Shown: positions 24,078 through 57,316, counted from the first letter of the stretch. The stretch: DNA of 64,000 nt from Rhizobium sp. Q54 (GCA_945892755.1 CAMDDO010000004.1:3099-67098); one strand, 5' to 3'. Translations and numbers: made by a program. Notes: generated by a model from the letters alone, not told the origin.

Positions 24078-24079
24078 GC

Positions 24080-28570: not shown

Positions 28571-29571
28571 TGCGCGCGCTCAAGGCCGGCGTGATCGGGC
28601 TCGGGGTCGGCGAGCGCCATGGCGCCGCCTATCAGGCCGAGCCCGGCTGCGAGCTGGTCGCGCTCTGCGATCTCGATGAGAAGCGCCTGAAAGAGGTCGG
28701 CGACCGGCTCGGCGTCGCGGAACGCCACACCGATTGGCGCCGCATCACCGAGCATCCCGAGCTCGATGTCATCTCGATCTGCTCCTATGACGATTGCCAT
28801 GCCGAGCAAGCGGTTTCCGCGTTTCGTCATGGCAAGCACGTCATGGTCGAAAAGCCGGCGGCGCTGCACCGCGCCGAGGCCGAGGCGATGCTGCGCGCCA
28901 TGACCGACAGCAAACGTCTGATCACTTCGAATTTGATCCTGCGCAAGAGCCCGCGCTTCATCGCCGTGCGCGACATGATTCGTGACGGGCGTTTCGGTGA
29001 AATCTTCTATCTCGAAGGCGATTACATCCACGAGATTCTGTGGAAGATCGTCACGGGCTGGCGCGGCCGCATGCCGTTCTACTGCGTTACCTATGGCGGC
29101 GGCATTCATTTGATCGACCTGATGCGCTGGCTGATGGGGCAGGAGATCGTCGAGGTTTCCGGCATGGGTAACAAGCTGGCCTCGCGCGGCGCCGACTTTC
29201 CCTATCCTGACACCATCGTCAATCTCATGCGCTTCGAGGGCGGCGCGCTGGCCAAGAGCCTCACCACCTTCGCGCCGCAACGCCCGCAAATTCACGCGCT
29301 CTCGATCTATGGCTCGCGCGCGACCTTCGTCAACGACATGCCCAACGCCAAATTGTTCGGCGGCAGCAAGCCGGAAGACGAAACCCCGATGCGCGCGCCC
29401 TATCCGGCGATCGAGAAGGGCGCGCTGCTGCCCGATTTTCTCGCCGCAATCCGCGAGGGGCGCGAGCCCGAAATCGGCGCGCGAGATATTTTTCGCGTCA
29501 TGGATGTGTGCTTCGCGGCCTGGGAATCGGTCGAGGCCGGGCACACGGTCAAGGTGAGCTATCTGATCTGA
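28567..29571 (+). CDS. Gfo/Idh/MocA-family NAD(P)-dependent oxidoreductase
   Basis: KAGVIGLGVGERHGAAY Rossmann start and EKP motif (VMVEKPAA). Confidence 0.8.
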   Translation: MMRALKAGVIGLGVGERHGAAYQAEPGCELVALCDLDEKRLKEVGDRLGVAERHTDWRRITEHPELDVISICSYDDCHAEQAVSAFRHGKHVMVEKPAALHRAEAEAMLRAMTDSKRLITSNLILRKSPRFIAVRDMIRDGRFGEIFYLEGDYIHEILWKIVTGWRGRMPFYCVTYGGGIHLIDLMRWLMGQEIVEVSGMGNKLASRGADFPYPDTIVNLMRFEGGALAKSLTTFAPQRPQIHALSIYGSRATFVNDMPNAKLFGGSKPEDETPMRAPYPAIEKGALLPDFLAAIREGREPEIGARDIFRVMDVCFAAWESVEAGHTVKVSYLI

Positions 29572-30731
29572 TGAGCGAGCCCAGGATCATTCCGTTCGGC
29601 CGGCCGATGATCGGCGCGGAGGAACAGGCGGCGGTCGCGCGCGTGCTCGCCGGCCCGCAGCTCGTGCACGGGCCGGCCGCCCATGATTTCGAGACCCGCT
29701 TCGCCGCCCGGGCCGGCGTCGCGCACGCCGTTTCGGTGTCATCCTGCACGGCGGGACTGCATCTTGCGTTGCATGTTCATGGCATCGGGCCGGGCGATGA
29801 GGTGATCGTGCCGGCCATGACCCATGTCGCGACCGCGCACGCGGTCGAATATTGCCGGGCGAGGCCGGTCTTCGTCGATGTCGATCCCACGAGCGGTAAT
29901 CTCGATCTCGAGGCGCTCGAGGCGGCGATCGGACCGAACACGCGCGCCATCATGGTGGTGCATTTTCTCGGCCTGCCGCCCGACATGACGCGGCTGCGCG
30001 CGATCGCGAAAAAGCACGATTTGCTCGTGGTCGAGGATGCCGCGCTCGCGCTTGATGCGAGCTATGATGGCGTCAAGGCCGGCGGACTTGGCGATGTGGC
30101 GAGTTTCTCGTTTTACCCGACCAAGCACATGACGACCTCCGAAGGCGGCATGGTGACGACCAACGATGCCGAAATCGCCCGGCGTGTCGCCGCGATGAAG
30201 GCGTTCGGCTATGACAAGACGCTCGACGAGCGCACCCGCCCCGGCATCTATGACGTGACCGCGCTCGGCTACAACTACCGCATGAGCGAGGCCCACGCGG
30301 CGATCGGGCTGGCGCAATTGGCGAAGCTCGATGGCTTTCAGGCCGCGCGCGCCGCGAACTTCAAGGCGCTCAGCGACGGCCTCGCCGATTGCGCCGAGCT
30401 CATGGTGTTCGCGCCCGCGCAAGGCAAGGGGCGCTCGTCGCATTATTGCCTGAACGCGATGCTGCCGCGCGATGGCGGGATCGCGCGCGACGATGTGGTG
30501 GCGCAGCTAAAAGCCAAGGGCATCGGCACCAGCGTGCATTATCCGAGCGCGGTGCCGCTATTCGCCTATTATCGCGAGAAATATGGCTACCGCGCGGGTC
30601 AGTTTCCGGTCGCCGAATGGCTCGCCCGGGCGACCATCTCGCTGCCGGTCGGACCGCATCTCGAACCGGGCGATCCGGCGCGCATCGCCAATTCGCTCAA
30701 GGCCGCGGTCGCGGTCGCCGAGGCGCGCTAG
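29571..30731 (+). CDS. DegT/DnrJ/EryC1/StrS-family PLP sugar aminotransferase
   Basis: SFSFYPTKHMTTSEGG with PLP lysine; fold-type I sugar aminotransferase. Confidence 0.85.
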   Translation: MSEPRIIPFGRPMIGAEEQAAVARVLAGPQLVHGPAAHDFETRFAARAGVAHAVSVSSCTAGLHLALHVHGIGPGDEVIVPAMTHVATAHAVEYCRARPVFVDVDPTSGNLDLEALEAAIGPNTRAIMVVHFLGLPPDMTRLRAIAKKHDLLVVEDAALALDASYDGVKAGGLGDVASFSFYPTKHMTTSEGGMVTTNDAEIARRVAAMKAFGYDKTLDERTRPGIYDVTALGYNYRMSEAHAAIGLAQLAKLDGFQAARAANFKALSDGLADCAELMVFAPAQGKGRSSHYCLNAMLPRDGGIARDDVVAQLKAKGIGTSVHYPSAVPLFAYYREKYGYRAGQFPVAEWLARATISLPVGPHLEPGDPARIANSLKAAVAVAEAR

Positions 30732-30738
30732 GCGCGCC

Positions 30739-31845
30739 ATGAGACAGGAGACAAGAACCGCCGTGATCGATCCGTCCTATCAAGCCGCGCTCGACCGCCT
30801 GAAGCCGCATCGCATTCTGTTGGTCGGCGGGGCCGGCTTCATCGGACACAATCTCGCGCTCGAACTCGGCCGCCATGGCCAGAGCGTCATGGTCGCCGAC
30901 AATCTGATGGTGAACAATCTGGTGCAGAACGTGTCGTCGGCGCAAATGGCGCCGGTGCAACGCAGGCTCTATCAGAATTTCCTGCTCGACCGATTCATCT
31001 TGATGCGCGACGGCGGCGTCAATTTTCGCAATGTCGATGCGCGCAATTCGATTGAGATCGCGCGCGTGTTCGACGAGTTTCAGCCGACCAAGATTGTCCA
31101 TCTGGCTGCCATCGCGAGCGCGGTGGAGGCACGGAAGGATCCCGGCCTGGCTTTCGATCTTCAGCTCGTCACGTTTAGGAACGTGCTCGAGCAAGCGCGA
31201 CTGAGCCATGGCCGGGTCAACCAGGTCATGTTCATGAGTTCGAGCACGGTCTATGGCGATTTCGAGGGGGCGGAAGTTGACGAGATGACCCGGCCGCAGC
31301 CTGAGGGCATTTATGCCAATGGCAAGTATATGGGTGAACGATTAGCCCGCACCTATGCGACGCAACACAATGTTCCTTCGATCATTGTGCGACCTTCGGC
31401 GCTTTATGGCGAGCGCTGTGTGAGCCGTCGGGTCTCACAAGTCTTTGTCGAGAATGCATTGTCGGGTAAGCCCTTGCTGCTCGAAGGCGGCGGCGATGGC
31501 CGTCTCGACTTCACTTACATCAAGGACCTTGTCGATGGGATGGTGCGCGGCTTGGCTATTGATTGCCAAGCCGGGTACACCAACACCTACAATCTGACTT
31601 ATGGCAACGCTCGCACGGTGGCGGACCTGGCCGCGGTGGTAAAAAGCGTGGTGCCGGAAGCTAAGCTCGAGGAACGGCCGCGCGCCGCCGATAAGCCGAT
31701 TCGCGGCACGCTTTCGACCCAACGCGCCGCGCAAGAACTCGGCTTCCGCGCGGCTTGGCCGCTCGAAACCGGATACCGTCGATACTGTGAATGGTACGTC
31801 GCTGAGTGGCGCAAGGCGGAGGCTCAGTGCCGCTCGGCCTCGTAG
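30739..31845 (+). CDS. NAD-dependent epimerase/dehydratase (extended SDR)
   Basis: ILLVGGAGFIGHNL Rossmann motif, YxxxK region (YANGKY). Visibly lower GC than neighbours. Confidence 0.8.
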   Translation: MRQETRTAVIDPSYQAALDRLKPHRILLVGGAGFIGHNLALELGRHGQSVMVADNLMVNNLVQNVSSAQMAPVQRRLYQNFLLDRFILMRDGGVNFRNVDARNSIEIARVFDEFQPTKIVHLAAIASAVEARKDPGLAFDLQLVTFRNVLEQARLSHGRVNQVMFMSSSTVYGDFEGAEVDEMTRPQPEGIYANGKYMGERLARTYATQHNVPSIIVRPSALYGERCVSRRVSQVFVENALSGKPLLLEGGGDGRLDFTYIKDLVDGMVRGLAIDCQAGYTNTYNLTYGNARTVADLAAVVKSVVPEAKLEERPRAADKPIRGTLSTQRAAQELGFRAAWPLETGYRRYCEWYVAEWRKAEAQCRSAS

Positions 31846-32552
31846 TTTTCGCGCGCATGGATTCGCGCCGGCTGCCTGGCAAGGCGTTGTGCGATATCGC
31901 CGGTCGGCCATTATTGGGACGCGTGCTCGACCGCGTACGCGCGGTTCACTCCGCGCCGCCGATTGTCGTGGCCACTTCGGCGCGCGCGGTCGACGATCCG
32001 ATCGCGCGCTTCGCCAAGGCGGAGGGTGTGGGATTGTTCAGGGGTGATGCCGCGGATGTGCTCGGCCGCGCTCTGGCCTGCGCGGATCATTTCGCATTTT
32101 CGGCGATCATCCGCATCTCAGGCGATAGTCCTTTCATAGACCCCGGCCTGATCAAGCAGTGCGTCACCCGCTTCGAGGCCGTGCCGGAGATCGATTTGGT
32201 GACCAATGCCATGCCCAAGACATTCGCACCCGGATTGAGCGTCGAGGTGATCGCGACCGAGGCTCTGCGCCGCGCTTCAAGAGAGGCCACCGCAACCGAT
32301 GAGCGGGAGCATGTGACGCTATATTTGTATCGGCACGCGGCACGGTTTCGAATCGAGAATATCGCGGCGCCCGATGAGCGTTACCTTGGCATCACGCTCA
32401 CCATCGATGAACCGGGCGATCTTGACCGCGCGACCTGGATCGCCCAGGCGCTCGGGCCACGCGCCGCGAGCGCGCCGCTCGACGAGGTGGTCGCCCTCGC
32501 GCGCCGCTTCGGTGCCGAACGCTCGCCGGAGGTCGTGCATGGACGTGCGTGA
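31806..32552 (+). CDS. acylneuraminate cytidylyltransferase-family protein (SpsF/PseF-like), copy 1
   Basis: VVFARMDSRRLPGKAL motif of the CTP_transf_3 family. An alternative GTG start lies at 31825. Confidence 0.75.
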   Translation: MAQGGGSVPLGLVVFARMDSRRLPGKALCDIAGRPLLGRVLDRVRAVHSAPPIVVATSARAVDDPIARFAKAEGVGLFRGDAADVLGRALACADHFAFSAIIRISGDSPFIDPGLIKQCVTRFEAVPEIDLVTNAMPKTFAPGLSVEVIATEALRRASREATATDEREHVTLYLYRHAARFRIENIAAPDERYLGITLTIDEPGDLDRATWIAQALGPRAASAPLDEVVALARRFGAERSPEVVHGRA

Positions 32553-35151: not shown

Positions 35152-36702
35152 ATGAGCCAGGAATCGCGGCGCGACCGACCGGTGGTCATCATCCAGATGA
35201 TGAACCAATATGCCGATCTCCTGAGCGCGCTCGCCAAGGCACTGAGCGAGAATTACGGCATCGGCTCGATCCTGATCCATCGCGGGCCGGGCGATCTGCC
35301 CAACCCGAAGCGCTATCATTTTGACAAGACGGCGTTCGATGAGTTGCTCGACATCGAATCTATCCTCGCGCCACGCGCCATTGAAAATTTACCCCGCACC
35401 GCCGCGCTCGCGGCCGAGATCGCGACGGTCGAGCAGAGGCTTTCGATCAAATTGCTTGAAGCGGTGCGCGCGGATCGCCATCTCGGTCGCGGCTTTGTCG
35501 TCGGCGCGGTCTATGCGCGTTCGCGCTATGGTATTTCAGTCGATTTCGATCAGAGCCTCGATATCGCGCTCCGCCTCGCATGTCGATTCGAAGAGCTTTA
35601 TCGCTCCCGCGAGGTCGTGGCGGTGATCGGCGCGATATCTTCGATCCATGGCAATCTGATGGTCAGCGTGGCCGAGGGCCTCGGCCTGCCGGTGCGGCAG
35701 CCCAATTTGACGAACAACACGCGGCTTTATTGGGCGGTCGATCGCCATTTCCGGCCGCTTGATTTCGAGGCCTCGCTGGCGCGCGCGCTGCAACAAGGCA
35801 ATGCGCGCGCCGAACTCGGCACCACCGCGCGCGCGGCCGGCGTGATCGCGAGCCTGCCTCGGCAAACCACCTGGCGCTATCTCGCGCGAGCCATCTATCG
35901 CGCGACGCGGCGCGAACTCGGCCATCGGCTCAAGCGGCGCGATCAGGTCTATGGCAAATATCTCTGGGGCGATCTGCTGAAGACGATCATCGGCACATGG
36001 CGGCTGCGTCGTGCCGCGCGCAAGGCGACGCCCGTATTGCCGACGCTGCCCGCCGGCCTGCCCTATGTGTTTCTGCCGTTTTCGGTCGAGCCCGAATCGA
36101 CCCTGATGGCCGAATCGCCGACCTGCGACAATCAACTTGCCTTGATCGATTGGGTCGCCAAGGCGATGCCGAGCGGCTGGCGCCTCCTCGTCAAGGAACA
36201 CCCGGCCTTCACCGCGCCCCGCCCCGCGGGCTTCTGGGAGCGGGTGCGCGCCTACCCGAACGTGGTCGTGTTAGCGCCGCTCGAGCGCGGCGAAGATGCC
36301 ATGCGCGGCGCCAAGGCGCTCGCGATCATCCGCAGTTCGCTCGGCTTCCAGGCCGCCGCGCTCGGCATTCCGGTCGTCACGCCGCATCCGGCCTATTATG
36401 GCGCGAGCCTGCCGCACGTCTTCATCGTCGAATCCTATCGCGCGATGGAAGCGGCCTTGCGCAAGATCGCGCGCGACGAGCTGCCGCCGATCGCGCTGCG
36501 AATCCAAGCGTTTCAGGCCTTGCACACTGTCTTCGACGAGGCGAGCCTGCCGATCGCCGATCCGAACCTGATTCGCGGCGTGGCCGGCGGGCGGGAGATC
36601 GACCCGGGCGAGGTGGGCCTAATCGTCCGATCGCTCGCCGAGAGTCTGAACCTCGGGTCCGGCGAAGTGGCGCGCGCGCTTCTGCTAAAGGGTGTCAGAT
36701 GA
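35152..36702 (+). CDS. capsule-polysaccharide-biosynthesis (KpsC/KpsS/LpsZ/RkpZ-like) putative glycosyltransferase
   Basis: LLVKEHP motif and surrounding GT-B-like C-terminal half resemble the Capsule_synth family. Assignment is from memory of the motif. Confidence 0.5.
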   Translation: MSQESRRDRPVVIIQMMNQYADLLSALAKALSENYGIGSILIHRGPGDLPNPKRYHFDKTAFDELLDIESILAPRAIENLPRTAALAAEIATVEQRLSIKLLEAVRADRHLGRGFVVGAVYARSRYGISVDFDQSLDIALRLACRFEELYRSREVVAVIGAISSIHGNLMVSVAEGLGLPVRQPNLTNNTRLYWAVDRHFRPLDFEASLARALQQGNARAELGTTARAAGVIASLPRQTTWRYLARAIYRATRRELGHRLKRRDQVYGKYLWGDLLKTIIGTWRLRRAARKATPVLPTLPAGLPYVFLPFSVEPESTLMAESPTCDNQLALIDWVAKAMPSGWRLLVKEHPAFTAPRPAGFWERVRAYPNVVVLAPLERGEDAMRGAKALAIIRSSLGFQAAALGIPVVTPHPAYYGASLPHVFIVESYRAMEAALRKIARDELPPIALRIQAFQALHTVFDEASLPIADPNLIRGVAGGREIDPGEVGLIVRSLAESLNLGSGEVARALLLKGVR

Positions 36703-36745
36703 TTCCTTTCGCGCCAATCGATGCGTCCCTCCAAGAGATTACGTC

Positions 36746-37555
36746 GTGAGAACCGCCATCGTCGTCGAATCTCGACTGAGCTCGCGCCGCTTGCCGGGGA
36801 AGGCGCTGCGCCCGATCGCCGGCGAGCCCATGTTGGGCGTGCTGCTTGATCGGCTCAAGCGTTCGCGCCTTGCCGACGTGATCTGCGTCGCCACCTCGAC
36901 CGAGCCCAATGACGCCGCCATCGCGGCGCTCGCGCGCGCCAAGGGCGTCGAGGCCTTTCTCGGCTCTCTTGACGACGTCCTTGGTCGCGTGTTGGGCGCG
37001 CTTGATTTTGTGGCCGCCGATTTGATCGTCGAGATCACAGGCGATTGCCCGCTCGTGGACCCGCTCCTCATCGATCAGGCCATTGCGCGTTACCTCGCGG
37101 GGGGCGCCGACTACCTCGCCAACATGCTCAATCGGCTGACCTACCCGATCGGCATGGATGTGCAAATTTATTCCCGCGCGCTGCTCGCCAGTGTCGATCT
37201 TCTGTGCCTCGAGCCGGACATGCGCGTCGACGTGACGCCCTATATTTATCGTCATGGCGAACGGTTCCGCTTGCTCAATATTCTGGCGCCGCCGCCCCTG
37301 AGCCGGCCGAATTACCGGTTGTGTGTCGATGTCAAGGAAGATTTCGAGTTGATCGAAGCGGTGCACCACGCGCTCGGCCGTCGTGGAACGGCCTACGGTC
37401 TCGCCGAGATCGTCGCCTTCCTCGATGCAAACCCTGCGCTCGCACGTCACAATCTGAACCAGCCCGACGCCTTCGCCTGTCCACGCACTGTCGGGCCGCT
37501 GCGCGAGGAAGAAATGCCACTTCCGGCCGACGATCCGAGGCTCGCCGCCGCATGA
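36746..37555 (+). CDS. acylneuraminate cytidylyltransferase-family protein (SpsF/PseF-like), copy 2
   Basis: AIVVESRLSSRRLPGKAL, colinear with copy 1. GTG start at 36746. Confidence 0.75.
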   Translation: MRTAIVVESRLSSRRLPGKALRPIAGEPMLGVLLDRLKRSRLADVICVATSTEPNDAAIAALARAKGVEAFLGSLDDVLGRVLGALDFVAADLIVEITGDCPLVDPLLIDQAIARYLAGGADYLANMLNRLTYPIGMDVQIYSRALLASVDLLCLEPDMRVDVTPYIYRHGERFRLLNILAPPPLSRPNYRLCVDVKEDFELIEAVHHALGRRGTAYGLAEIVAFLDANPALARHNLNQPDAFACPRTVGPLREEEMPLPADDPRLAAA

Positions 37556-38535
37556 CGCGCGCGCTGATCATTGGCTGTGGCCAAATCGCCGGTGGCTTTA
37601 ATGAGAGCGACGAGACCAGCACTTTGAGCCATGTCGTGGCGCTGCGGCACGCGGGGGCCGACGTGATCGGGTGCATGGATCATGATCCCACCCGCGCGCG
37701 CCGCTTTGCCGAGCGCTGGAACATTGGCGAACACGGCACAGTGCTTGCTGCGATGCTGGAGCGCCTGGCGCCCGACCTTGTGGTCGATTGCACGCCGCCC
37801 AGCGTACGCCTCAGCATTGTCTCGGCTGCGCTCGTCGCGCCGAGCGTGCGCGCACTCTTGATCGAGAAGCCGTTGGCGAGCAGTGCCGCCGAGGCGGTCG
37901 CGATGCGTAGCCGTGTTCGCTCGGCCAACAAACCAGTGATCGTCGCCTATCAACGTGCTTTCGACGCGTGCTATGTCGCGGCCGAGACGATGGTGCGGCA
38001 GGGCGGACTCGGGCGATTGGTTCGTATTACTGCGATCGCTTATGGCGGCGCGCTCGCCAATATGTCGCATCTGCTCGAGCGCACGTTCGCGATGGCCGGT
38101 TGGCCACGCGAGGCCGCCCTAATTGGTGCACCGATTCTCGAAGACGCCAACGATCCCGGTCTTAGCTTCCGCGCCAGCTTCGCTGATGAGGTAGAGGGTG
38201 TCTTTCTCGCCGTGCCGCGCGCCGGGCCCGCCGTGATTGAACTCGAACTAATCGGCAGCGAGGGCCGGCTGCGCATCCTCGATTCCGAGCGGCGCGTCGA
38301 ATTGAGCCGTGCGTTGCCCTCGCGCGATGGCGTGGCGCGGCTTGTCGAGTCCGTAGCACCCACACCCCTGCCGGCCCCTGATTGGGAGGCGATTCGTCAC
38401 GTCGCCAAGGCCGCAATTGCCGCGTCCAGCGGAGCGATGCTCGATGTCGCCATGATCGAGCGCGCGACCGAGGCCGTGATCTTGATCGACAGCTTAAGAC
38501 ATACCGGCGTTTTCGCACGGAAGAACGCGGCGTGA
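37552..38535 (+). CDS. Gfo/Idh/MocA-family oxidoreductase, copy 2
   Basis: LIIGCGQIAGG Rossmann start, EKP motif (LLIEKPLA). Confidence 0.7.
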   Translation: MTRALIIGCGQIAGGFNESDETSTLSHVVALRHAGADVIGCMDHDPTRARRFAERWNIGEHGTVLAAMLERLAPDLVVDCTPPSVRLSIVSAALVAPSVRALLIEKPLASSAAEAVAMRSRVRSANKPVIVAYQRAFDACYVAAETMVRQGGLGRLVRITAIAYGGALANMSHLLERTFAMAGWPREAALIGAPILEDANDPGLSFRASFADEVEGVFLAVPRAGPAVIELELIGSEGRLRILDSERRVELSRALPSRDGVARLVESVAPTPLPAPDWEAIRHVAKAAIAASSGAMLDVAMIERATEAVILIDSLRHTGVFARKNAA

Positions 38536-39800
38536 TGCGAAACACCACACTTGCCATCAATGGTGGCGCGCCGACCATAGATCGATCGTTCCCGCCCTAT
38601 CGAACAATCGGTGAGGCCGAAGAGCGCGCGGCGCAACGCGTGCTACGCTCTGGCGTGTTGAGCGCGTTCTATGGTTCGATCGGCGATAATTTTCTCGGTG
38701 GCCCTGAGGTTAAACGCTTCGAGGCGGCCTGGGCGGCGCATTTTCAAGTGCGCCATGCGGTCTCGATGAACAGCGCGACGAGCGGGTTGATTGCGGCCGT
38801 GCAGGCACTCGGGCTTGGGCCGGGCGATGAGATGATCGTGCCGCCTTTTAGCATGATCGCGTCGGCCACGGCGGCGACGATCAACGGCGCGACACCGGTC
38901 TTCGTCGATATCCGCCCTGATATTTTCACGCTTGATCCAGCCATGGTCGAAGCCGCCATCACGCCACGCACCAAGGCGATCATGGTGGTCAATCTATTTG
39001 GCCAGCCGGCGGATCTCGATGCGCTGATCGCACTGGCCCGGCCGCGCGGCATCCGCGTGATCGAGGACAACGCGCAAGCCCCCGGCGCGCTCTATCACGG
39101 CCGTCAGGCTGGCACGATCGCCGATATCGGCATTTTCTCGCTCAATTGCCACAAAACGATCCAGACCGGCGAAGGGGGCTTTGCCTGCACCAATGACGAT
39201 GACCTGGCGTTGCGGCTTCAACTGATTCGCAATCACGGCGAGGCGGTGGTACGCGAGCTTGGCTATCGCAACGCGCCGGAGCGGATCACCGGATATAACT
39301 TCCGTCTGGGCGAGATCGAAGCCGCGATTGGCTATGAGCAATTGGCGAAGCTCGATGCCCTCACGCGGCCGCGCCAGCGTCTTGCCGCCTTCTTTGCCGA
39401 GCGCCTCGCGGCTCTGCCAGGCCTTTCCGTCCCCAAGGTCGAAACCGGGCGCAGTCACGTCTATTACGTCCATGCGCTGAAGCTTGATTCAAGGCGCGCG
39501 GGTTTCTCGCGGCGTTCCTTGGTTCGCGCGCTCGGCGCGGAGGGGCTCGAGGCCTATGAGGGCTATTGCAAGCCGCTCTATCTCGAACCGTTATTTTCGA
39601 ACAACGCGCGCAATCACGCCGGCCTTTGTCCGGTCACCGAACGGCTCCATGAGAGCGAATTGTTCTTTCATCCCTGGCTCTATGAGGCGATCGAGCCAAA
39701 GGCCGAATTGATCGTGCGAGCGTTCGAGAAAGTTTGGGATAATGCGACCGCGCTCGCCGCGCTTGATGATGATGGACGACGTGCTGTTCGCCGCCGCTGA
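38535..39800 (+). CDS. DegT/DnrJ/EryC1-family PLP sugar aminotransferase, copy 2
   Basis: FSLNCHKTIQTGEGG PLP-lysine region. Confidence 0.85.
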   Translation: MRNTTLAINGGAPTIDRSFPPYRTIGEAEERAAQRVLRSGVLSAFYGSIGDNFLGGPEVKRFEAAWAAHFQVRHAVSMNSATSGLIAAVQALGLGPGDEMIVPPFSMIASATAATINGATPVFVDIRPDIFTLDPAMVEAAITPRTKAIMVVNLFGQPADLDALIALARPRGIRVIEDNAQAPGALYHGRQAGTIADIGIFSLNCHKTIQTGEGGFACTNDDDLALRLQLIRNHGEAVVRELGYRNAPERITGYNFRLGEIEAAIGYEQLAKLDALTRPRQRLAAFFAERLAALPGLSVPKVETGRSHVYYVHALKLDSRRAGFSRRSLVRALGAEGLEAYEGYCKPLYLEPLFSNNARNHAGLCPVTERLHESELFFHPWLYEAIEPKAELIVRAFEKVWDNATALAALDDDGRRAVRRR

Positions 39801-40872
39801 ACCCGGTGGCGCCAATGTGCTGGCGAGCTTCCACGCCGGCGCGAAGCGTCGCTATCGGGCGTGTCCGGCATGGGCAACGCCGGGCGCAAGCCCCGTGTTC
39901 GAGGCCGCGGGCCTCAAAGTCGAGCGGCTCGAGGCCTTGCCGTCGGTCGCGGAGGTCGAACGGCGCTGGGCCGCGATCGAGAAGCCGGGCGCGGTTGTCA
40001 CGGGCACCTCGCTCGATGGCACGCTCGAAGCCACGCTCTGGCGCCTCGCCGCGCGCGATGGCGTTCCCGCGCTTGCCTGGATCGATCAATGGATGAACCT
40101 CGATCATCGATTTCGAAAGGGCCGCCCGGCCTGGGTCGCCGCGCTCGACGCGGCACAGCGCGATGCGCTGATCGCAATAGGCTTTGAGCATGACCGCGTC
40201 ATTTTGGGCGGCCATCCGCATCTTCACGCCATGATGTCGTGCCCGCTCGACGCCGCGCCTCATACCGATCGAGAAGGCATACAAACCGTCCTCTTTGTGA
40301 GCGAGTCCTATACCGAGGACTATCGCCTCGGCAGACTAAGCCCGCTTGGCTATGACGAACATGAGGTGTTCGACATCGTGGCCCATGGGATTGAGGCCGC
40401 CAAGCGCGCAGACCCAGACCGGCGCATCGATCTCGTGGTCAAATTTCATCCGCTCGAAGGCGAGCCGCGTCGGTTCATCGAACGCCTGGAATCAAGGCCG
40501 TGGCCCAAGAATGTTACCGCGCGTTGGTTGCCGGGCCCGGCATCGGGGCGTGAGGCCGCGGCGGCGGCTGATCTCGTCATCGGAATGAGTTCGATCTTGT
40601 TGCTTGAGGCGCTCCTAATGGAGCGACCTGTGCTCAGCCTGACGCCGGGGCATGAGGGCGAGGATCCCTTCATCGCGAGCCGGCTTGGCGCGGTGCATGC
40701 CGCTCATGAACGCGAGGCCGGGATTGTTCTTGTGCGCCGCGCCCTTGTCGAACCGGGCTTTCGTGCCGCGGCGCTTGAGCGCCAAAAGCGCTTCCTCGAT
40801 GCTATGCCCGAAGATGGCTCGGCCCTGGTCGTTGCTTGGCTCGATCGCGCGGGAACCCATGCCGGCGGCTGA
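39766..40872 (+). CDS. GT-B-like protein with K.HP motif (KpsC/KpsS/TagF-like), copy 2
   Basis: DLVVKFHPLEG then IGMSSILLLEALLMERPVL, resembling the C-terminal half of Capsule_synth/TagF transferases. Low certainty. Confidence 0.4.
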   Translation: MMMDDVLFAAAEPGGANVLASFHAGAKRRYRACPAWATPGASPVFEAAGLKVERLEALPSVAEVERRWAAIEKPGAVVTGTSLDGTLEATLWRLAARDGVPALAWIDQWMNLDHRFRKGRPAWVAALDAAQRDALIAIGFEHDRVILGGHPHLHAMMSCPLDAAPHTDREGIQTVLFVSESYTEDYRLGRLSPLGYDEHEVFDIVAHGIEAAKRADPDRRIDLVVKFHPLEGEPRRFIERLESRPWPKNVTARWLPGPASGREAAAAADLVIGMSSILLLEALLMERPVLSLTPGHEGEDPFIASRLGAVHAAHEREAGIVLVRRALVEPGFRAAALERQKRFLDAMPEDGSALVVAWLDRAGTHAGG

Positions 40873-41398
40873 ACCTATCGAAACCGCACGCTTGCGCCTC
40901 GAACCGTTCGGCGAGGCGCACTTGACCGAGATTTATGTTGCTTGGCTGAATGATCCCGAGATCGTGCGCTATAGCGAGCAACGCCATCGGCGGCACAATC
41001 TCGAAGGCAGTCGCCTTTGGGTTCAGTCCATGCGTGCGGGTGGCCATCCGCTCTGGGCGATCGAGGCAAAGAATCCACCGCTTGGTCATATCGGCAATAT
41101 TGCGGCCTATGTTGATGCGCCCAACCGGCTTGCGGATGTCAGCATTTTGATCGGCGCGCGCGCGGCGTGGGGCAAGGGCCTTGGCGCGGAGGCCTGGCGC
41201 GCGGCGTGTGACTGGCTGCTCGACTGCGCGCTCTTGCGTAAAGTCACCGGCGGTACCATGGCAGCCAATCGCGCGATGGTGCGCGTGATGGAACGCACCG
41301 GCATGCGCCCCGATGGCATGCGCGCCGGGCAATTTCTCCTCGATGGCGAAGCCGTCGATCTCGTGCACTATGCGCGCTTCGCGCCCAATCAAAGCTAG
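40859..41398 (+). CDS. GNAT-family acetyltransferase (RimL-like)
   Basis: RLEPFGEAHLTEIYVAWLNDPEIVRYSE N-terminus paralogous to the GNAT at 45741. GNAT core WGKGLGAEA. Confidence 0.7.
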   Translation: MPAAEPIETARLRLEPFGEAHLTEIYVAWLNDPEIVRYSEQRHRRHNLEGSRLWVQSMRAGGHPLWAIEAKNPPLGHIGNIAAYVDAPNRLADVSILIGARAAWGKGLGAEAWRAACDWLLDCALLRKVTGGTMAANRAMVRVMERTGMRPDGMRAGQFLLDGEAVDLVHYARFAPNQS

Positions 41399-41448
41399 AT
41401 CTCTCGGTCGCGATACGCCGCGGCCCGCCCAAACATCGGAGCATCCTT

Positions 41449-42522
41449 TTGTCGCCCAGGACGTCTGAGAACAAGCCGCGCCAAGCCAGCCAATTCGGAG
41501 CGCGTCGCTTCGATGCGCCGACACCAGAGCTCGATGGCAAAACCATCCTTGTTACCGGCGGCACGGGCTCGTTCGGCAAGGCCTTTGTGCGCCATGTGCT
41601 CAGTCATCATCGGCCGCGCAAGGTGATCGTGTTCTCGCGCGATGAGTTCCGCCAATACGAGATGGCGCAGACCATCGGTACCGAGCCGGGTCCGGCGATC
41701 CGCTATTTTATCGGCGACGTGCGCGACGGCGACCGGCTCGAATTCGCCATGCGCGATGTCGATCATGTGATCCACGCCGCGGCGCTCAAACATGTGCCGA
41801 CCGCCGAGTACAATCCGTTCGAATGTATCCAGACCAATATTCACGGCGCCGAAAATGTCGTGAAGGCGGCGATCCGTACCGGCGTGACGCGCGTCGTCGC
41901 GCTTTCGACCGACAAGGCGGCAAATCCAATCAATCTCTATGGCGCAAGCAAGCTCGCCTCTGACAAGATCTTCGTTGCCGCGAACAGCCTTGCCGGGCGG
42001 AGCCCGACGCGGTTCTCGGTCGTTCGTTATGGCAATGTGCTCGGTTCGCGCGGCAGCGTGATCCCGTTCTTCGAGAAGCTCATCGCCGACGGGGCCACGG
42101 CGCTGCCGATCACCGATCCGCGCATGACGCGATTCTGGATCACGCTGAGCCAAGGCGTGCGTTTCGTGTTGTCGTCGCTCGCCATGACCAGCGGTGGCGA
42201 GATTTTTGTGCCGCGCATACCGAGCATGAAGATGGTCGATGTCGCGTCGGCGCTCGCGCCTAACCTGAAGCACGACATCATCGGCATTCGTCCGGGTGAG
42301 AAGCTCCATGAGATGATGATCGGCGAAGATGACGGACGCACCACATTGGCGCTCGATGATCGCTATGTGATCGAACCGGCCTTTTCCTATTGGACGCGCG
42401 AATCCGCCGCCAAATATGGCGGTCGCCCGGTCGAAAGCGGGTTCTGCTATGCCAGCGACAGCAATGATGAATGGCTCGGCGCCGAGGCCTTGCGCACGCT
42501 CCTGAAGGAGCCGCGCACCTGA
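41449..42522 (+). CDS. pseB: UDP-GlcNAc 4,6-dehydratase (inverting), PseB/FlaA1/CapD family
   Basis: ILVTGGTGSFGKAF, short-chain dehydratase layout with the characteristic C-terminal extension. Probable TTG start. Confidence 0.85.
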   Translation: MSPRTSENKPRQASQFGARRFDAPTPELDGKTILVTGGTGSFGKAFVRHVLSHHRPRKVIVFSRDEFRQYEMAQTIGTEPGPAIRYFIGDVRDGDRLEFAMRDVDHVIHAAALKHVPTAEYNPFECIQTNIHGAENVVKAAIRTGVTRVVALSTDKAANPINLYGASKLASDKIFVAANSLAGRSPTRFSVVRYGNVLGSRGSVIPFFEKLIADGATALPITDPRMTRFWITLSQGVRFVLSSLAMTSGGEIFVPRIPSMKMVDVASALAPNLKHDIIGIRPGEKLHEMMIGEDDGRTTLALDDRYVIEPAFSYWTRESAAKYGGRPVESGFCYASDSNDEWLGAEALRTLLKEPRT

Positions 42523-42547
42523 GCGCATCGATGTCGAAGCAACTCCA

Positions 42548-43771
42548 ATGACGTTTCTGCCCTATGGTCGCCAGCAGATCGATGACGACGATATCGCCGC
42601 CGTCACGGCGGTGCTGCGCGGCGATTGGCTCACCACCGGCCCAGCGGTCGAGGCCTTCGAGCGCGCGTTTGCTGAAAGAGTGGGCGCGCCTTATGCCGTC
42701 GCCTGCTCGAGCGGCACAGCGGCACTGCACCTTGCAATGCTCGCGCTTGGGTTCGGCCCGGGCGACATCGCGATCGTGCCCGCACTTACCTTTGTCGCGA
42801 CCGCTAATGCCGCGCGCTATGTTGGCGCAGACGTGGTCTTCGCCGATGTCGAGCCCGCGACCGGGCTGATGGGGCCGGCACATTTGAGCGACGCCATAGC
42901 GCAAGCGCACCGCATCTTTCCGACGAGTCGTGTCCGGATCGCGCTGCCCGTGCATCTGAATGGCCAAGCGTGCGACATGGCGGGCCTCGCGCGCATTGCA
43001 GATGCCGAGGGAATTGCGCTGGTCGAGGACGCTTGCCATGCCCTGGGCGGCATGGCGGGCGCTGCGCCGGAGGATCGTATTGGCGCGTGCCGACACAGCG
43101 CCATGGCCACCTTTTCGGGACATCCGGTCAAAACGATTGCGATGGGTGAAGGTGGTGTGGTGACCACGCGAGACGGGGCGATCGCCGCAAAACTACTCCG
43201 ACTGCGCGCGCATGGCATTACGCGCGAGTCGTCGCGCTTCACTGAACGGGTACAGGCCTTTGACGGCGACGGGCAGGTGAATGCCTGGTATCACGAGCAG
43301 GTCGAGCTGGGCTTCAATTATCGGGCGAGCGACCTGCATTGTGCCCTCGGCCTGAGCCAGCTCAAGAAGCTCGATCGTTTCATCGCGGCGCGTGATCGGT
43401 TGGTCGGGCACTATCGAAAAGCGCTGGCGCCTTTTGCACCTATTGTCCGACCACTCGGTCTCGCCGGTCACGGAACGCCGGCTTGGCATTTGTTCGTCGC
43501 GCTGATCAATTTCGATGCCGCCGGCATCTCACGCAACACGACGATGGCGCGACTGAAGGCCAAGGGAATTGGCACGCAGGTTCATTATTTGCCGGTCAAT
43601 CGCCAGCCTTATTACCGCGCGCGCTATGGCGTGACCACGTTGCCGGGCGCCGATGCCTATTATGCCCAAGCGCTCTCTCTGCCGCTTCATGCAGAAATGA
43701 CAGAAAACGACGTCGACCGCGTGCTCGTTGCGCTGGGCGAGATACTTGGGCAATCGGGGCGATCGACATGA
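42548..43771 (+). CDS. pseC: UDP-4-keto-6-deoxy-sugar aminotransferase (PseC/DegT family)
   Basis: DegT fold, TFSGHPVKTIAMGEGG PLP lysine region, immediately after pseB. Confidence 0.85.
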   Translation: MTFLPYGRQQIDDDDIAAVTAVLRGDWLTTGPAVEAFERAFAERVGAPYAVACSSGTAALHLAMLALGFGPGDIAIVPALTFVATANAARYVGADVVFADVEPATGLMGPAHLSDAIAQAHRIFPTSRVRIALPVHLNGQACDMAGLARIADAEGIALVEDACHALGGMAGAAPEDRIGACRHSAMATFSGHPVKTIAMGEGGVVTTRDGAIAAKLLRLRAHGITRESSRFTERVQAFDGDGQVNAWYHEQVELGFNYRASDLHCALGLSQLKKLDRFIAARDRLVGHYRKALAPFAPIVRPLGLAGHGTPAWHLFVALINFDAAGISRNTTMARLKAKGIGTQVHYLPVNRQPYYRARYGVTTLPGADAYYAQALSLPLHAEMTENDVDRVLVALGEILGQSGRST

Positions 43772-45744
43772 CGGCCGCAGACCAGAATCGGGTCGGGGCG
43801 ATTGTCGAGTCCGCCTTGGGTATGGACCACGCGATTGCCCGATTTGGCGAGGCCAATACGCTGATCTCGACAACGTCGCCGTTCGTGCTTGAGAAATGCC
43901 GAATTCTTGGGCGCCGCTGCTTCGCGATCGATGGTTCATTGCCGCAAGCCAAGGCCGATTCGATCGGTTACGCATCACTGCGCGCGACGAGCGATATCAC
44001 GGATCTCGTGGATTCCGCCGCGACAAGTGATGAGCCGCCCTTTGGTTGGGCCTTGCTGCCCCAGCTGCACCGGATGCTGACTGCCTTTCTTTACAAGGCC
44101 CATCTACTTGATCACGTGATGCGGGAGTGCGCGAATGACGGACGCTTGTGGACCGTCGGTCATTCCGAAGCGCGAGCGGTGCGCGGCTTCAACGTCATGA
44201 TCAACCGTTTCGACACGCTTTTTACAGTGCTGGGTGCACGGCGTGGCATTCCACATATCGGACTAGAAGCGCCAGAGCCGTCGGGCGCTGCTGAAACCGG
44301 CGATTTTATGCGGCCATCAATCTGGACTCGGATGGTCACTGTGATGAATGCGCCGGCGACGAGCGTGTTCTATCGGCTGTGGCGCGGGCCTCTGAAGGGT
44401 CGTGCCTTGGCGCTTGTGCCGGGGTGGAACCGTAATCCGATCGTTGTCGTGCACCGTGGCAACGAAATGATCGAAGAAATCCTACCGAGGCTTCTCTTGC
44501 GCGGCTGTGAAATTCGCCGCTTGCCGCGCTTGCATTCTACGTCCGACGAGGTTGATGCGCCCCCGACGGTCAGCCTCGAAGCCATCACGGCTCGGATTAA
44601 ACGCCGCTGTGTCGATGCCGAGTTAGGCTGGAGCGATACCCTCCAGATCGCGGCGATGCAGGCTGGGGAGCGCCTGCGCACGGCGTTGCGTCATGGTCCG
44701 AGCTTGTGGCGCTCCACCGAGGTTTGTGTCGAAGAATTGAAGCGCGACGCGCGCGGTCGGCCGCTCGGTCTTTTGACCAATGCCATGGCCAGTGGGCAAG
44801 AGCGCCTGCTGCGCCATGCGCTCGACCGACATGGTATTCAATCGTTCGTTGCAGAGCACGGCGTTGCGCCAGGTTTGAGCCCGATGCATGAAGCGCTCTA
44901 CGCCATCGACAAGGTGGCAAGCCTGCGGCGTACGCTGCTCTATACGCCGGCGCAACACCGTCTTTATGAGCGATCCATCGGCGTGGCGGAGGCGGCCAAT
45001 TGTCCGGTGGTTGGTGTGCCGCGCCTGGTTCGCAAAATCGGCATGCGGCCAATTCAGCGCGTCGCGGTGCGTGCCGCGCTCGGTGCCAAAGGTCGCCTCG
45101 CGATATGGTGCACCGCGCTTTATCCGAACAATTTTCAGTTTCTGCCGCATTATTGGCGTGACACGCCGTACCACGAAATAAGGCGTCGCGTGGTCACCGA
45201 CGTCTTTGGCAAAATTTCCGACCATGTCGTGCTCAAGCTCTACCCAACCTATCGCTATGTCGATCCTGATCCGCTTGCTGGGCTTATGACTCTACCGCCC
45301 AATTGTCGGGTCGAGCAATTCACCGATTTTCGCAATCTGCGCGCAGCGGCGGACCTGATTGTCGTCGATGGCCCCGGCAGTGTGATGGCGTGGGCGTGGA
45401 GCACGAATGTGCCGTTCATCTACCTCGAAACCGGCATGTATGGGCTCGACGCAACGGTGCGACAGGCGCTAGAACGCAGTGCCTTTGTGGTGGACGTCGC
45501 CGACCAGGATTGGGCGGACCGATTCTTGGCGTTGCTTCGGCTCGACCATAGGGCGCTGGTGGCGCGTTTCGCGGCAAAAAGCGCGGAGCGCGAGAGTTTC
45601 GCGACGGAATATGCGCTTGGTCCCAAGGGCGGGGCCGGCCGGCTGGGCAGTGCCTACATTCATGCGAGCTTGACGAAGCGAGAAGGACAGGGCGTGCAAA
45701 CGGTCGCGCTCAGCAACGAACCGCGCGCGGAACCGCGGTCATGA
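43768..45744 (+). CDS. large (658-aa) uncharacterised protein, possibly TagF/Capsule_synth-like transferase
   Basis: C-terminal LKLYPTYRYVD...IVVDGPGSVMAWAWSTNVPFIYLETG resembles the LYAPTWR region of CDP-glycerol glycerophosphotransferase-like GT-B enzymes. Weak. Confidence 0.4.
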   Translation: MTAADQNRVGAIVESALGMDHAIARFGEANTLISTTSPFVLEKCRILGRRCFAIDGSLPQAKADSIGYASLRATSDITDLVDSAATSDEPPFGWALLPQLHRMLTAFLYKAHLLDHVMRECANDGRLWTVGHSEARAVRGFNVMINRFDTLFTVLGARRGIPHIGLEAPEPSGAAETGDFMRPSIWTRMVTVMNAPATSVFYRLWRGPLKGRALALVPGWNRNPIVVVHRGNEMIEEILPRLLLRGCEIRRLPRLHSTSDEVDAPPTVSLEAITARIKRRCVDAELGWSDTLQIAAMQAGERLRTALRHGPSLWRSTEVCVEELKRDARGRPLGLLTNAMASGQERLLRHALDRHGIQSFVAEHGVAPGLSPMHEALYAIDKVASLRRTLLYTPAQHRLYERSIGVAEAANCPVVGVPRLVRKIGMRPIQRVAVRAALGAKGRLAIWCTALYPNNFQFLPHYWRDTPYHEIRRRVVTDVFGKISDHVVLKLYPTYRYVDPDPLAGLMTLPPNCRVEQFTDFRNLRAAADLIVVDGPGSVMAWAWSTNVPFIYLETGMYGLDATVRQALERSAFVVDVADQDWADRFLALLRLDHRALVARFAAKSAERESFATEYALGPKGGAGRLGSAYIHASLTKREGQGVQTVALSNEPRAEPRS

Positions 45745-49553: not shown

Positions 49554-49557
49554 TCGC

Positions 49558-51769: not shown

Positions 51770-52789
51770 ATGAACGCGCCGCTCGCGTTGTTTCGGCTTG
51801 ATGCGACGCCTTCGCTCGGCGTCGGCCATTTGGCGCGCTGCCACGTGCTGGCCGAGGCGTTGAAGGGAGAGGGCTGGCGCACGCGCTTCGCGGTCTCGGC
51901 CGAAACCGCGTCGAGCGTCGGCGCGCCGCGTGACGCGATCATCGTGCCACCCGAATCGATGGACGAGCCGCGCGCGCTTGGCGACGCGGAGCCAAAGGGA
52001 TGCGATCTTCTGGTGGTCGATCATTATGGCCGCGACGCGGCGTTCGAACGCGCCTGCCGGCCCTGGGCGCGGCATATTCTCGTGCTCGACGATCTGGCCG
52101 ATCGGGCCCACGACGCCGACGCTCTGCTCGACCCCACACCAGGCCGGAATCCGGCGGATTACGCCAACCTCGTGCGGACCGACACGCGCCTCCTGCTCGG
52201 GCCGAGCCATGCACTGCTCGACGCGCGCTTTGCCGCCGCCCGACCCATGGCGCTGGCGCGGCGTCGCGCGGGCGGTGCGGCCGCGCGCGTTCTCATCAGC
52301 CCGGGCGGCACCGATCCGGCCGATGTGGCGAGCCTCGCGCTCGATGCCCTTGTCGGCCTGGAGCCGGCGCTCGTCGCCGACGTGGCGCTGCTGCCGAGCG
52401 CGCCGCATCTTGCGCGCACGCGCGCACGCGTCGGACCGCGCGTCACCTTGCATTGTCCCGCCGAGGACATGGCGGCTTTGATGGTCGAGGCCGATGTCGC
52501 GATCGGCGCAGCGGGCGGCAGCGCCTGGGAGCGTTGCTGCCTCGGCCTGCCAATGCTGCTCGTCATCACGGCCGAGAATCAGCGGCTCAATGCGCGACGC
52601 CTGGAAGACGCAGGCGCCGCTCTTGTCGTTGGTGAGGCAAGCCACGTGACGGTTGAGAGCTTTCGCCGAGAGATCGTCGAGTTGGTGAGCGATGCGAGTC
52701 GCCGTCGACGCATGGCCGAAGCGGCGGCATTATTATGCGATGGCGAAGGCGTACGCCGCGTGCTCTCGATCATCAAGGAAGGCGTATGA
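51770..52789 (+). CDS. pseG: UDP-2,4-diacetamido-2,4,6-trideoxy-beta-L-altropyranose hydrolase
   Basis: FRLDATPSLGVGHLARCHVLAEAL N-terminus typical of PseG. MurG-like GT-B fold. Confidence 0.8.
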   Translation: MNAPLALFRLDATPSLGVGHLARCHVLAEALKGEGWRTRFAVSAETASSVGAPRDAIIVPPESMDEPRALGDAEPKGCDLLVVDHYGRDAAFERACRPWARHILVLDDLADRAHDADALLDPTPGRNPADYANLVRTDTRLLLGPSHALLDARFAAARPMALARRRAGGAAARVLISPGGTDPADVASLALDALVGLEPALVADVALLPSAPHLARTRARVGPRVTLHCPAEDMAALMVEADVAIGAAGGSAWERCCLGLPMLLVITAENQRLNARRLEDAGAALVVGEASHVTVESFRREIVELVSDASRRRRMAEAAALLCDGEGVRRVLSIIKEGV

Positions 52790-57289: not shown

Positions 57290-57304
57290 CCGTACTGAGT
57301 ACGG
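57290..57304. promoter_or_regulatory. palindrome CCGTAC-TGA-GTACGG between AKR and sulfotransferase::ABC genes
   Basis: Perfect 6-bp inverted repeat in the 34-bp intergenic gap. Confidence 0.2.
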
Positions 57305-57316
57305 GCTCGTGATGCC

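Follow-up and report, generated by a model that had tools for sequence, protein, structure and literature searches.

Three remotely related GT-B proteins as candidate nonulosonic acid transferases in a Rhizobium sp. Q54 sugar island

Knowledge of the transferases cognate to nonulosonic acids (NulOs) is scarce (PMC5420450), and those named as characterized in the papers cited here are Maf proteins, enzymes of T. forsythia, and KpsS1 of family GT118 (PMC5420450, PMC12887879). BFO_1060 is orthologous to Tanf_01245 and TFUB4_00887, whose knock-outs lose the terminal Pse/Leg derivative (PMC5420450). In the retaining Kdo transferases, a key conserved element is QxxxD, which supplies a carboxylate-binding Gln and a nucleophilic Asp, and KpsS1 of Acinetobacter baumannii is a KpsS-like retaining Pse5Ac7Ac transferase, according to the description of Walklett et al. 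2024 in the same source (PMC12887879). TagF-like polymerases (PF04464), represented by TagF (3l7i), TarL (8va1), and Cps3D (8qoy), carry two invariant catalytic His residues (H444 and H584 in TagF; H300 and H433 in TarL).

The locus compared here with these systems lies in a 64,000-nucleotide stretch of Rhizobium sp. Q54 DNA (GCA_945892755.1 CAMDDO010000004.1:3099-67098), referred to as the window, and encodes three proteins, T1, T2, and T3 (Table 1).

Gene content of the nonulosonic acid island

The island spans ~21.4 to 60.4 kb of the window (~39 kb), has genes on the plus strand only, and is flanked by housekeeping and transport genes. Its predicted products are pseudaminic acid, for which PseB, PseC, PseG, and PseI all score above their NCBIfam cutoffs, and at least one other NulO. 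Further content includes three CTP_transf_3 genes, several GNATs, an FkbH-domain protein, a TylF methyltransferase, a MaoC-SDR fusion, and WbuX. The initial annotation envisaged a homopolymer, but the island encodes two or more NulO synthases along with three genes of the CMP-transferase type, which argues against a simple one. The island probably ends in export and modification functions, represented by a sulfotransferase-ABC fusion.

T1, T2, and T3 are the sole glycosyltransferase candidates found in the island, where no GT2 or GT4 domain occurs among the proteins scanned and three other ORFs are without assignment; ORFs 32539-32916, 32941-33297, and 50249-51751 (the last encoding 500 aa) have no relatives by sequence in the PDB. 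Neither an acceptor nor a gene for a primer-forming enzyme or a lipid carrier was found in the island. Two settings were considered and rejected: flagellin glycosylation, since the scanned proteins include no Maf-type domain or flagellin gene and the flanks are of the kind described above, and a group 2 capsule (KpsMTED), since the only exporter found is of the ABC_membrane type.

Table 1. Features of the island and of its three candidate transferases (window coordinates; residues refer to the encoded protein)
Feature	Position	Strand	Evidence or content
Second NulO pathway	22905..32552	+	NeuB-family synthase, AsnB-like protein, WbuX amidotransferase, methyltransferase, GNAT, Gfo, DegT, SDR dehydratase, cytidylyltransferase
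T1, 516 aa, divergent Capsule_synth (KpsC/KpsS)-like GT	35152..36702	+	Sub-threshold PF05159 match; profile match to KpsC
T1 S311-V-E-P-E315, positional equivalent of QxxxD	36082..36096	+	Gapless HMMER alignment to 6mgd
T1 LLVKEHP, HP (predicted CMP-binding) motif	36184..36204 (residues 345-351)	+	
SpsF-like cytidylyltransferase, Gfo/Idh/MocA oxidoreductase, DegT aminotransferase module	36692..39800	+	Domain assignments
T2, 368 aa, GT-B fold; member of a large family without a name, related to BFO_1060-type NulO transferases	39766..40872	+	
T2 LVVKFHP, HP motif	40432..40452 (residues 223-229)	+	
PseB, between T2 and T3	41449-42522	+	NCBIfam equivalog, 513.8 vs cutoff 407.75
PseC, between T2 and T3	42548-43771	+	NCBIfam equivalog, 464.3 vs cutoff 423.5
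T3, 658 aa, unannotated family; ~330-aa N-terminal extension, then C-terminal GT-B module	43768..45744	+	
T3 GT-B module, homologous to T2 superfamily	44752..45690 (residues 329-641)	+	hhalign, 83%, E 9e-6, 270 columns
T3 LYPTYRY, Y492-P493 at HP-motif position	45238..45258 (residues 491-497)	+	
PseG, PseI, CMP-NulO synthetase-type cytidylyltransferase block	51770..54593	+	
PseG	51770-52789	+	TIGR03590, 206 vs cutoff 153.55
PseI	within 51770..54593	+	TIGR03586, 475 vs cutoff 340
CMP-NulO synthetase-type cytidylyltransferase	third gene of 51770..54593	+	CTP_transf_3 domain
Sulfotransferase domain fused to ABC_membrane + ABC_tran exporter	57299..60409	+	Domain scan

Homology and motifs of the three candidate transferases

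The three ORFs and their LLVKEHP, LVVKFHP, and LYPTYRY motifs had been described initially, the first two as sharing a K.HP-motif GT-B region and the third, with a TagF-like region, as probably belonging with them. The same three products were predicted independently on identical contigs from metagenomes, and the key residues of each motif are conserved within the respective family. All three are GT-B-type proteins, and their common element is an (H/Y)P motif that follows strand 2 of the C-terminal Rossmann domain. A GT-B fold (two Rossmann-like domains) was confirmed for T2 and T3 at the level of AF2 models by structure comparison. BLASTP among T1, T2, T3, and other unknowns of the island returned nothing significant, so that profiles were needed to link them: T1 and T2 were related with 92-93% probability in profile-profile comparison, and T3 was related to the T2 superfamily. 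The latter link is visible only with a 104-sequence T2 superfamily profile, as hhalign with small profiles did not connect T3 with T1 or T2. No curated family threshold was passed by any of the three in Pfam and NCBIfam scans, and the one sub-threshold match in these direct scans was that of T1.

T1 is, as judged from sequence, a divergent relative of the KpsC/KpsS superfamily and a candidate retaining CMP-nonulosonate transferase. PF05159 (Capsule_synth) reached 15.9 bits, below the gathering threshold of 20 (E 0.0095), and precomputed matches to this model exist in 5 of 15 homologues. A profile of 13 family members matched the C-terminal Rossmann domain of solved KpsC structures (E 3.8e-6 for 8fuw/8fux/6mgc, 0.004 for 6mgd, and 0.021 for 6mgb), and the N-terminal 300 residues had no detectable match. 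The HP motif, in which V347, K348, E349, and H350 are invariant in the family and P351 is found in ≥90% of sequences, aligns on VKVHP of KpsC. T1 thus resembles KpsC/KpsS (GT107) and WbbB (GT99) in its invariant K-x-H-P, its strand/SP/HP spacing, and the profile match, and by analogy its donor may likewise be a CMP-activated 3-deoxy-2-ulosonic acid.

In contrast to KpsC/KpsS, T1 lacks QxxxD. SVEPE lies opposite QVESD of KpsC, with S311 in place of Gln and Glu315 in place of the nucleophilic Asp. The family pattern at this site is [STAH]-x-[ED]-P-E (H-x-Q-P-E in distant relatives), in which P314 and E315 are invariant, i.e., Gln is exchanged for Ser, Thr, Ala, or His and Asp for an invariant Glu. 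KpsC, T1, and an S. sojae plasmid protein with a canonical QIEID all have this site at the same distance from the “SP” and “HP” landmarks; the plasmid protein, a match to T1, is a 1,013-aa fusion of GT4 and Capsule_synth-like parts outside any Pse locus and was set aside. T1 homologues, including distant plasmid relatives, adjoin PseB/PseC, NeuB, or pseC/F/G genes. Unlike KpsC/KpsS loci, the T1 locus makes NulOs and encodes no KpsM/T/E/D export system, and KpsS1, compared by its published description only, provides a functional precedent for a role of T1 in NulO transfer.

T2 belongs to a family of 4,614 representatives. The clusters of its 104 relatives (full length; E ≤1e-36 against the T2 profile) have member names that are absent or read “hypothetical protein” throughout. 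H228 and P229 are invariant within the family and across these relatives, which also share the N-domain motif L-D107-x-W109-x-N-Y-x-x-R115-F. NF046086 (BFO_1060 family glycosyltransferase) matches 74 of the 104 (best E 7.8e-17; counted without reference to the curated cutoff), TIGR04396 matches 68, and NeuC matches 11 (best E 3.8e-7). T2 itself has no match to NF046086 at an E of ≤1, so its link to BFO_1060 is transitive. T2 is like the T. forsythia enzymes in being GT-B/TagB-like, in its HP motif, and in its position beside CMP-NulO biosynthesis genes; however, those enzymes are longer (~445 aa) and serve protein O-glycosylation in Bacteroidota, whereas T2 is encoded in an alphaproteobacterium, in an island that includes an ABC exporter. 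The KpsC/KpsS kinship initially proposed for both T1 and T2 stands for T1, though without QxxxD, and not for T2, which is not specifically KpsC-like and had no match to PF05159, PF04464, or PF02350.

The nearest structural and Pfam neighbors of T2 are 2-epimerases, and T2 could instead be a nucleotide-sugar hydrolase or hydrolysing 2-epimerase, analogous to LegG, NeuC, or PseG, that feeds the second NeuB-family synthase and acts together with the adjacent cytidylyltransferase, Gfo/Idh/MocA, DegT, and GNAT genes. Consistent with this, weak Epimerase_2 matches occur in 3 of 9 close and 59 of 104 distant relatives, the superfamily aligns over its full length with NeuC-type epimerases (hhalign, 93.8% probability), and no NeuC, LegG, or PseG is recognizable in the 22.9- to 32.5-kb pathway. 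T2 homologues are always found within a biosynthetic-looking module, flanked by CTP_transf_3, Gfo, DegT, and acyltransferase genes of the type at 36692..39800, of which the CTP_transf_3/Gfo/DegT set is kept in loci L004, L007, and L008. However, the acidic catalytic residues of NeuC (D108, E133, and D139 in the L004 NeuC) fall opposite G85, W109 (an invariant residue), and N111 in T2 in an alignment that is remote and only indicative; comparison of the T2 profile with individual NeuC or PseG sequences by hhalign gave no useful information. Family members score against 2-epimerase, TagF, and polysialyltransferase models less strongly than against NF046086, and L004, a distant locus, has a bona fide Epimerase_2 gene as well as its T2 homologue. 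The specific proposal that T2 is a missing PseG was rejected, as the island encodes a genuine PseG, scoring above cutoff, elsewhere. On this evidence, an epimerase or hydrolase function for T2 is considered unlikely, and a role as a glycosyltransferase is preferred.

For T3, the initial annotation suggested a TagF-like protein, which the profile searches did not bear out. PF04464 matched none of T1, T2, and T3 and none of the 21 members of the T3 family at an E of ≤1; PF05159 did not match T3 either. The T3 sequence has no match in Pfam, NCBIfam, or the PDB, its profile retrieved only helical-repeat noise from the PDB, and tblastn against plasmids gave no match. Foldseek ranked generic GT1/GT4 enzymes ahead of TagF. 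K490-L-Y-P-T494, R496, and Y497 are invariant in the family, and the YP, also present in a 27%-identical homologue from L004, lines up with K-l-H-P in the T2 superfamily. An invariant H364 (A-E-H-G) after an N-domain strand could correspond to the first TagF-like catalytic His; the second is probably absent, since Y492 occupies the HP-equivalent position by hhalign.

T3 might nevertheless have a decorating function, as a phosphotransferase of the TagF type or otherwise, and attach a polyol-phosphate or a group derived from glycerate, either to the glycan or to a NulO. Its N-terminal extension is of a kind found in TagF-like polymerases, and FkbH-domain, TylF, GNAT, and MaoC-SDR genes, which suggest acyl or glyceryl substituents, lie downstream of T3 in several loci. 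Against such a function, which appears improbable, stand the replacement of the second essential His by Tyr492, the result with PF04464, and the fact that no gene of the TagD/TarI/TarJ type for making CDP-glycerol or CDP-ribitol was seen in the island. T3 homologues occur in Alphaproteobacteria, Nitrospirales, and Elusimicrobiota, in every case within PseB/PseC/NeuB/cytidylyltransferase clusters, and the Elusimicrobiota locus combines T3 with the plain set of these genes and no FkbH.

That K.HP/YP is coincidental, with functions unrelated to one another or outside glycan assembly, would accord with the six chance occurrences of K.HP when the window is translated in all six frames (by itself a weak signal) and with the BLASTP result but has a negligible probability in view of profile links of 83-93%, motifs invariant within each family, the GT-B folds of T2 and T3, and strict association with NulO loci across phyla.

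Proposed assembly of a NulO-rich glycan

The preferred reading, with a probability of roughly 55%, is that T1, T2, and T3 are distant GT-B relatives, all of them glycosyltransferases that use CMP-NulO donors and build a NulO-rich glycan for the ABC exporter. Homologues of all three are always located in NulO loci; L004 contains them at 50%, 30%, and 27% identity, respectively, together with an ABC exporter, and ABC exporters are also found in homologue loci L003 and L005. T1 and T3 have basic isoelectric points (9.8 and 9.4) and no transmembrane helices, which would suit peripheral enzymes whose target is an acidic glycan.

The analysis shows the fold of these proteins, their homology, the conservation of their motifs, and their genomic association; their donor, acceptor, stereochemistry, and processivity are features that we infer. 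[quoted passage not shown] T1 may act by double displacement, as in retaining ulosonic acid transferases of the KpsC/KpsS/KpsS1 type, with Glu315 substituting for the nucleophilic Asp. T2 would act in the manner of the Pse/Leg transferases of the T. forsythia BFO_1060/Tanf_01245 type. T3 would represent a new family in which Tyr replaces the phosphate-contacting His of the GT-B module and whose N-terminal extension of 330 residues gives an architecture that may resemble that of TagF-like polymerases. The NulO-rich glycan assembled by the three would then be handled by the ABC exporter at the end of the island. More speculative, and doubtful, is a glycan composed essentially only of differently N-acylated NulOs, assembled by three hitherto unrecognized lineages, namely a retaining KpsC-like one with a Glu nucleophile ([S/H]-x-x-P-E instead of QxxxD), a BFO_1060-related one, and a new YP GT-B one whose N-terminal extension is of polymerase type, and then sulfated and exported by the sulfotransferase-ABC fusion.

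Significance for NulO transferase families

The window holds three candidate NulO transferase families side by side. T3 is new in combining a lack of sequence matches in Pfam, NCBIfam, and the PDB with occurrence across phyla only inside NulO clusters, and T1 is new in the alteration of QxxxD, a catalytic motif listed as a key one in retaining ulosonic acid transferases (PMC12887879). Should the proposal be wrong, the finding would shrink to three hypothetical GT-B proteins within a sugar island. If it is correct, it would provide more CMP-NulO transferases for glyco-engineering, would improve the genome annotation of NulO loci, and would offer a test of Glu as a substitute for the Asp nucleophile in double displacement.

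The nonulosonic acid island

The three open reading frames (ORFs) named in the initial annotation, T1, T2 and T3, and their quoted motifs were confirmed by an ORF check and motif location (see the table), and gene calls on identical metagenome contigs yield the same products. They lie in a region of the window (G+C content, ~64%) between ~21.4 and 60.4 kb in which nearly all + strand proteins scanned belong to nonulosonic acid (NulO) metabolism. Among the island proteins scanned, PseB, PseC, PseG and PseI exceed NCBIfam equivalog cutoffs and, with a CTP_transf_3 cytidylyltransferase alongside them, complete the pseudaminic acid (Pse) set. A second NulO pathway comprises a second NeuB-family synthase, an SDR dehydratase, a DegT aminotransferase, a Gfo/Idh/MocA oxidoreductase, GNAT, a methyltransferase, a WbuX-type amidotransferase and its own cytidylyltransferase. 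The island also encodes a third, SpsF-like cytidylyltransferase, two AsnB-like amidotransferases, an FkbH-domain protein, a TylF O-methyltransferase and a MaoC-SDR fusion. At its end is an ABC_membrane/ABC_tran exporter that carries a fused sulfotransferase domain. The flanks carry housekeeping and transport genes (GatA and GatB among them), and the proteins scanned included no flagellin. No GT2 or GT4 domain was found among the island proteins scanned, and PseG acts as a hydrolase, which leaves T1, T2 and T3 as the only glycosyltransferase candidates found.

Features of the NulO island, by position in the window
Feature	Position	Strand	Product
First NeuB-family synthase	22905-24077	+	
Small gene	32539-32916	+	125 aa
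Small gene	32941-33297	+	118 aa
T1	35152-36702	+	516 aa; LLVKEHP, residues 345-351
SpsF-like module	36692-39800	+	SpsF-like cytidylyltransferase, Gfo/Idh/MocA oxidoreductase, DegT aminotransferase
T2	39766-40872	+	368 aa; LVVKFHP, residues 223-229
T3	43768-45744	+	658 aa; LYPTYRY, residues 491-497
FkbH gene run	45741-50232	+	GNAT, MaoC-dehydratase/SDR fusion, FkbH-domain protein (TIGR01686 above cutoff), TylF O-methyltransferase
500-aa protein	50249-51751	+	500 aa
Fused exporter	57299-60409	+	1036 aa, one ORF; N-terminal Sulfotransfer_3, ABC_membrane, ABC_tran (MsbA/PglK-type)

The first NeuB-family synthase falls well short of both equivalog cutoffs (NeuB, 260 against 400; PseI, 197 against 340), and no NeuC, LegG or PseG is recognizable in the 22.9- to 32.5-kb pathway; therefore, the second NulO may be of an unusual type. 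The SpsF-like module, which recurs in comparison loci L004, L007 and L008, might aminate a nucleotide-activated sugar or NulO at another position. The FkbH gene run is kept 3' of T3 homologues in L005, L011, L015 and L016 and is probably a unit for unusual NulO N-acyl substituents, e.g., of hydroxyacyl or O-methyl-glyceroyl type. The 500-aa protein has no relative in Pfam, NCBIfam or PDB; its homologues (34 to 73% identity) directly follow T3 homologues, or lie close to them, in L005, L011, L012, L014, L015 and L016 and, in L003, lie close to a T1 homologue. It looks like a conserved partner in these NulO islands. Exporters of the same ABC type as the fused exporter are plain (unfused) in L003, L004 and L005, and L007 has a separate sulfotransferase plus an ABC-2/Wzt pair, which hints that NulO glycan sulfation is coupled to export. 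The two small genes, flanked by the first cytidylyltransferase gene on one side and the second AsnB-like gene on the other, have high GC3 and are called on identical contigs, and their products have no sequence relatives in PDB.

T1, a divergent KpsC/KpsS relative

The initially proposed kinship with Capsule_synth proteins is seen in T1 as a sub-threshold Pfam score (15.9 bits versus a cutoff of 20); T2 and T3 themselves have no Pfam match. Precomputed PF05159 matches exist for 5 of 15 T1 homologues recovered by word-indexed search, and a 13-member family profile matches solved KpsC beta-Kdo transferase domains with E values of 3.8e-6 (8fuw and 6mgc) and 0.004 (6mgd). In the 6mgd alignment, which is gapless over ~50 residues, KpsC Q-V-E-S-D lies over T1 S311-V-E-P-E315, and the SP and HP landmarks that follow are equally spaced in both; an S. 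sojae plasmid protein with the canonical Q-I-E-I-D falls in the same register. [quoted passage not shown] T1 therefore retains HP but has Glu at the Asp-nucleophile site; in its family this Glu is invariant and the Gln position is occupied by Ser, Thr, Ala or His.

T1 homologues with 48 to 50% identity adjoin PseB-PseC or lie within a NulO cluster that has two synthases and an ABC exporter. More distant relatives on one plasmid each of Rhizobium sp. WL3 and Mariluticola carry H-x-Q-P-E ... V-K-E-H-P and sit among NeuB/NeuC or pseC/pseF/pseG genes.

On the Rhizobium sp. WL3 plasmid NZ_CP042825 (L009, 6545-12394), four tandem "hypothetical proteins" of 449 to 513 aa, each with a strand-x-H-P element, adjoin NeuB, KpsF, NeuC and a cytidylyltransferase. 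One is 37% identical to the HP region of T1; the other three are related to one another and to a 475-aa protein of L007, and all four may be further candidate NulO transferases. S. sojae pSJ05684b (L017, 9901-12939) has an unannotated ORF of ~1013 codons, stop to stop, with a GT4-like N-terminal half and a Capsule_synth-like C-terminal half bearing canonical QIEID and RPHP.

T2 and T3 as members of a large and an unannotated GT-B family

T2 itself matches nothing in Pfam or NCBIfam, and a profile of nine members gives only marginal PDB matches (RfaG, 0.024; KpsC, 0.04). Exhaustive HMM search recovered 4614 cluster representatives at E <= 1e-3 (425 at <= 1e-30), and nearly all of the best 150 are full-length matches of ~330 to 400 aa. 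W109, R115, D128, G149, H228 and P229 are invariant in 104 relatives. Unlike T2, 74 of these relatives match NF046086, "BFO_1060 family glycosyltransferase" (best, 7.8e-17), and 68 match TIGR04396, "surface carbohydrate biosynthesis protein." BFO_1060 (strain 92A2) is the orthologue of Tanf_01245/TFUB4_00887, which carry HP and D/E-D/E-G motifs and whose knockouts leave the Tannerella forsythia O-glycan without its terminal Pse or legionaminic acid (Leg) derivative (PMC5420450).

It is rather unlikely that T2 is instead a hydrolyzing epimerase or hydrolase analogue. The T2 superfamily aligns over its full length with NeuC-type epimerases (probability, 93.8%), 11 relatives match NeuC in NCBIfam, and weak single-sequence Pfam matches are led by Epimerase_2 (59, versus 18 for Glyphos_transf, 15 for polysialyltransferase and 6 for Capsule_synth), but in this remote alignment the three catalytic acidic positions of NeuC fall on G85, W109 and N111 in T2. 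T2 homologues always adjoin genes for an SpsF-like cytidylyltransferase, Gfo/Idh/MocA, DegT and an acyl- or formyl-transferase, a placement compatible with a transferase or a biosynthetic role alike.

No sequence in Pfam, NCBIfam or PDB matches T3 or any of 21 family members. The confident AF2 model of T3 (pLDDT, 88; pTM, 0.88) is GT-B (Foldseek E, 1.2e-6; probability, 1.00), with GT1/GT4 enzymes in the top ranks. The initial proposal is not refuted on its own terms, under which none of the three proteins would have a Capsule_synth/TagF score or any GT-B fold. T3 showed no link to small T1 and T2 profiles, and its residues 329 to 641 align with the 104-sequence T2 superfamily profile over 270 columns (probability, 83%; E, 9e-6), K-L-Y492-P lying over K-l-H-P. 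The Tyr-Pro is retained in a 27%-identical homologue.

The ~330-residue N-terminal extension of T3 recalls the extra N-terminal domain of TagF-like polymerases, whereas the His corresponding to Tyr492 touches the alpha-phosphate and is essential in TagF-like enzymes (PMC10901376); a TagF-type phosphotransferase or decoration enzyme is an improbable identity for T3. T3 homologues, from MAGs of Alphaproteobacteria, Nitrospirales and Elusimicrobiota, always lie among PseB, PseC, NeuB and cytidylyltransferase genes. A pattern-based scan of 185,579 species genomes turned up only six loci, a lower bound.

Relationship and proposed activity

hhalign links T1 to T2 over the HP region (92 to 93.5%) and T3 to the T2 superfamily (83%); all three belong to the GT-B superfamily of CMP-ulosonate and CDP-polyol transferases. 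On its own, K.HP carries little weight, with six occurrences when the whole window is translated in all six frames, but coincidence of the motifs is very improbable, the motif residues being invariant across each protein's own family. A distant metagenomic locus (L004) encodes homologues of T1 (50% identity), T2 (30%) and T3 (27%) and an ABC exporter. Other loci have only one of the families together with a NulO pathway, which suggests that T1, T2 and T3 are independent modules and do not form an obligate complex.

The analysis establishes the fold and homology of T1, T2 and T3, the invariance of their motifs and their association with NulO loci; their donor, acceptor, stereochemistry and any polymerization are inferred. 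We put at about 0.55 the probability that the three are CMP-NulO-dependent GT-B transferases, T1 retaining, T2 T. forsythia-like and T3 of a new lineage. The strand-K-x-(H/Y)-P loop of each protein would bind the CMP phosphate. T1 would use Glu315 as the nucleophile of a retaining double displacement, T2 would act in the manner of the T. forsythia NulO transferases, and T3 would possibly be processive. The two synthases and three cytidylyltransferases of the island argue against a simple homopolymer, the product initially proposed for retaining Pse/Leg transferases. T1 stands out by its altered catalytic motif and T3 by the lack of any sequence match in Pfam, NCBIfam and PDB, and all three make worthwhile candidates for an enzyme class with few members.
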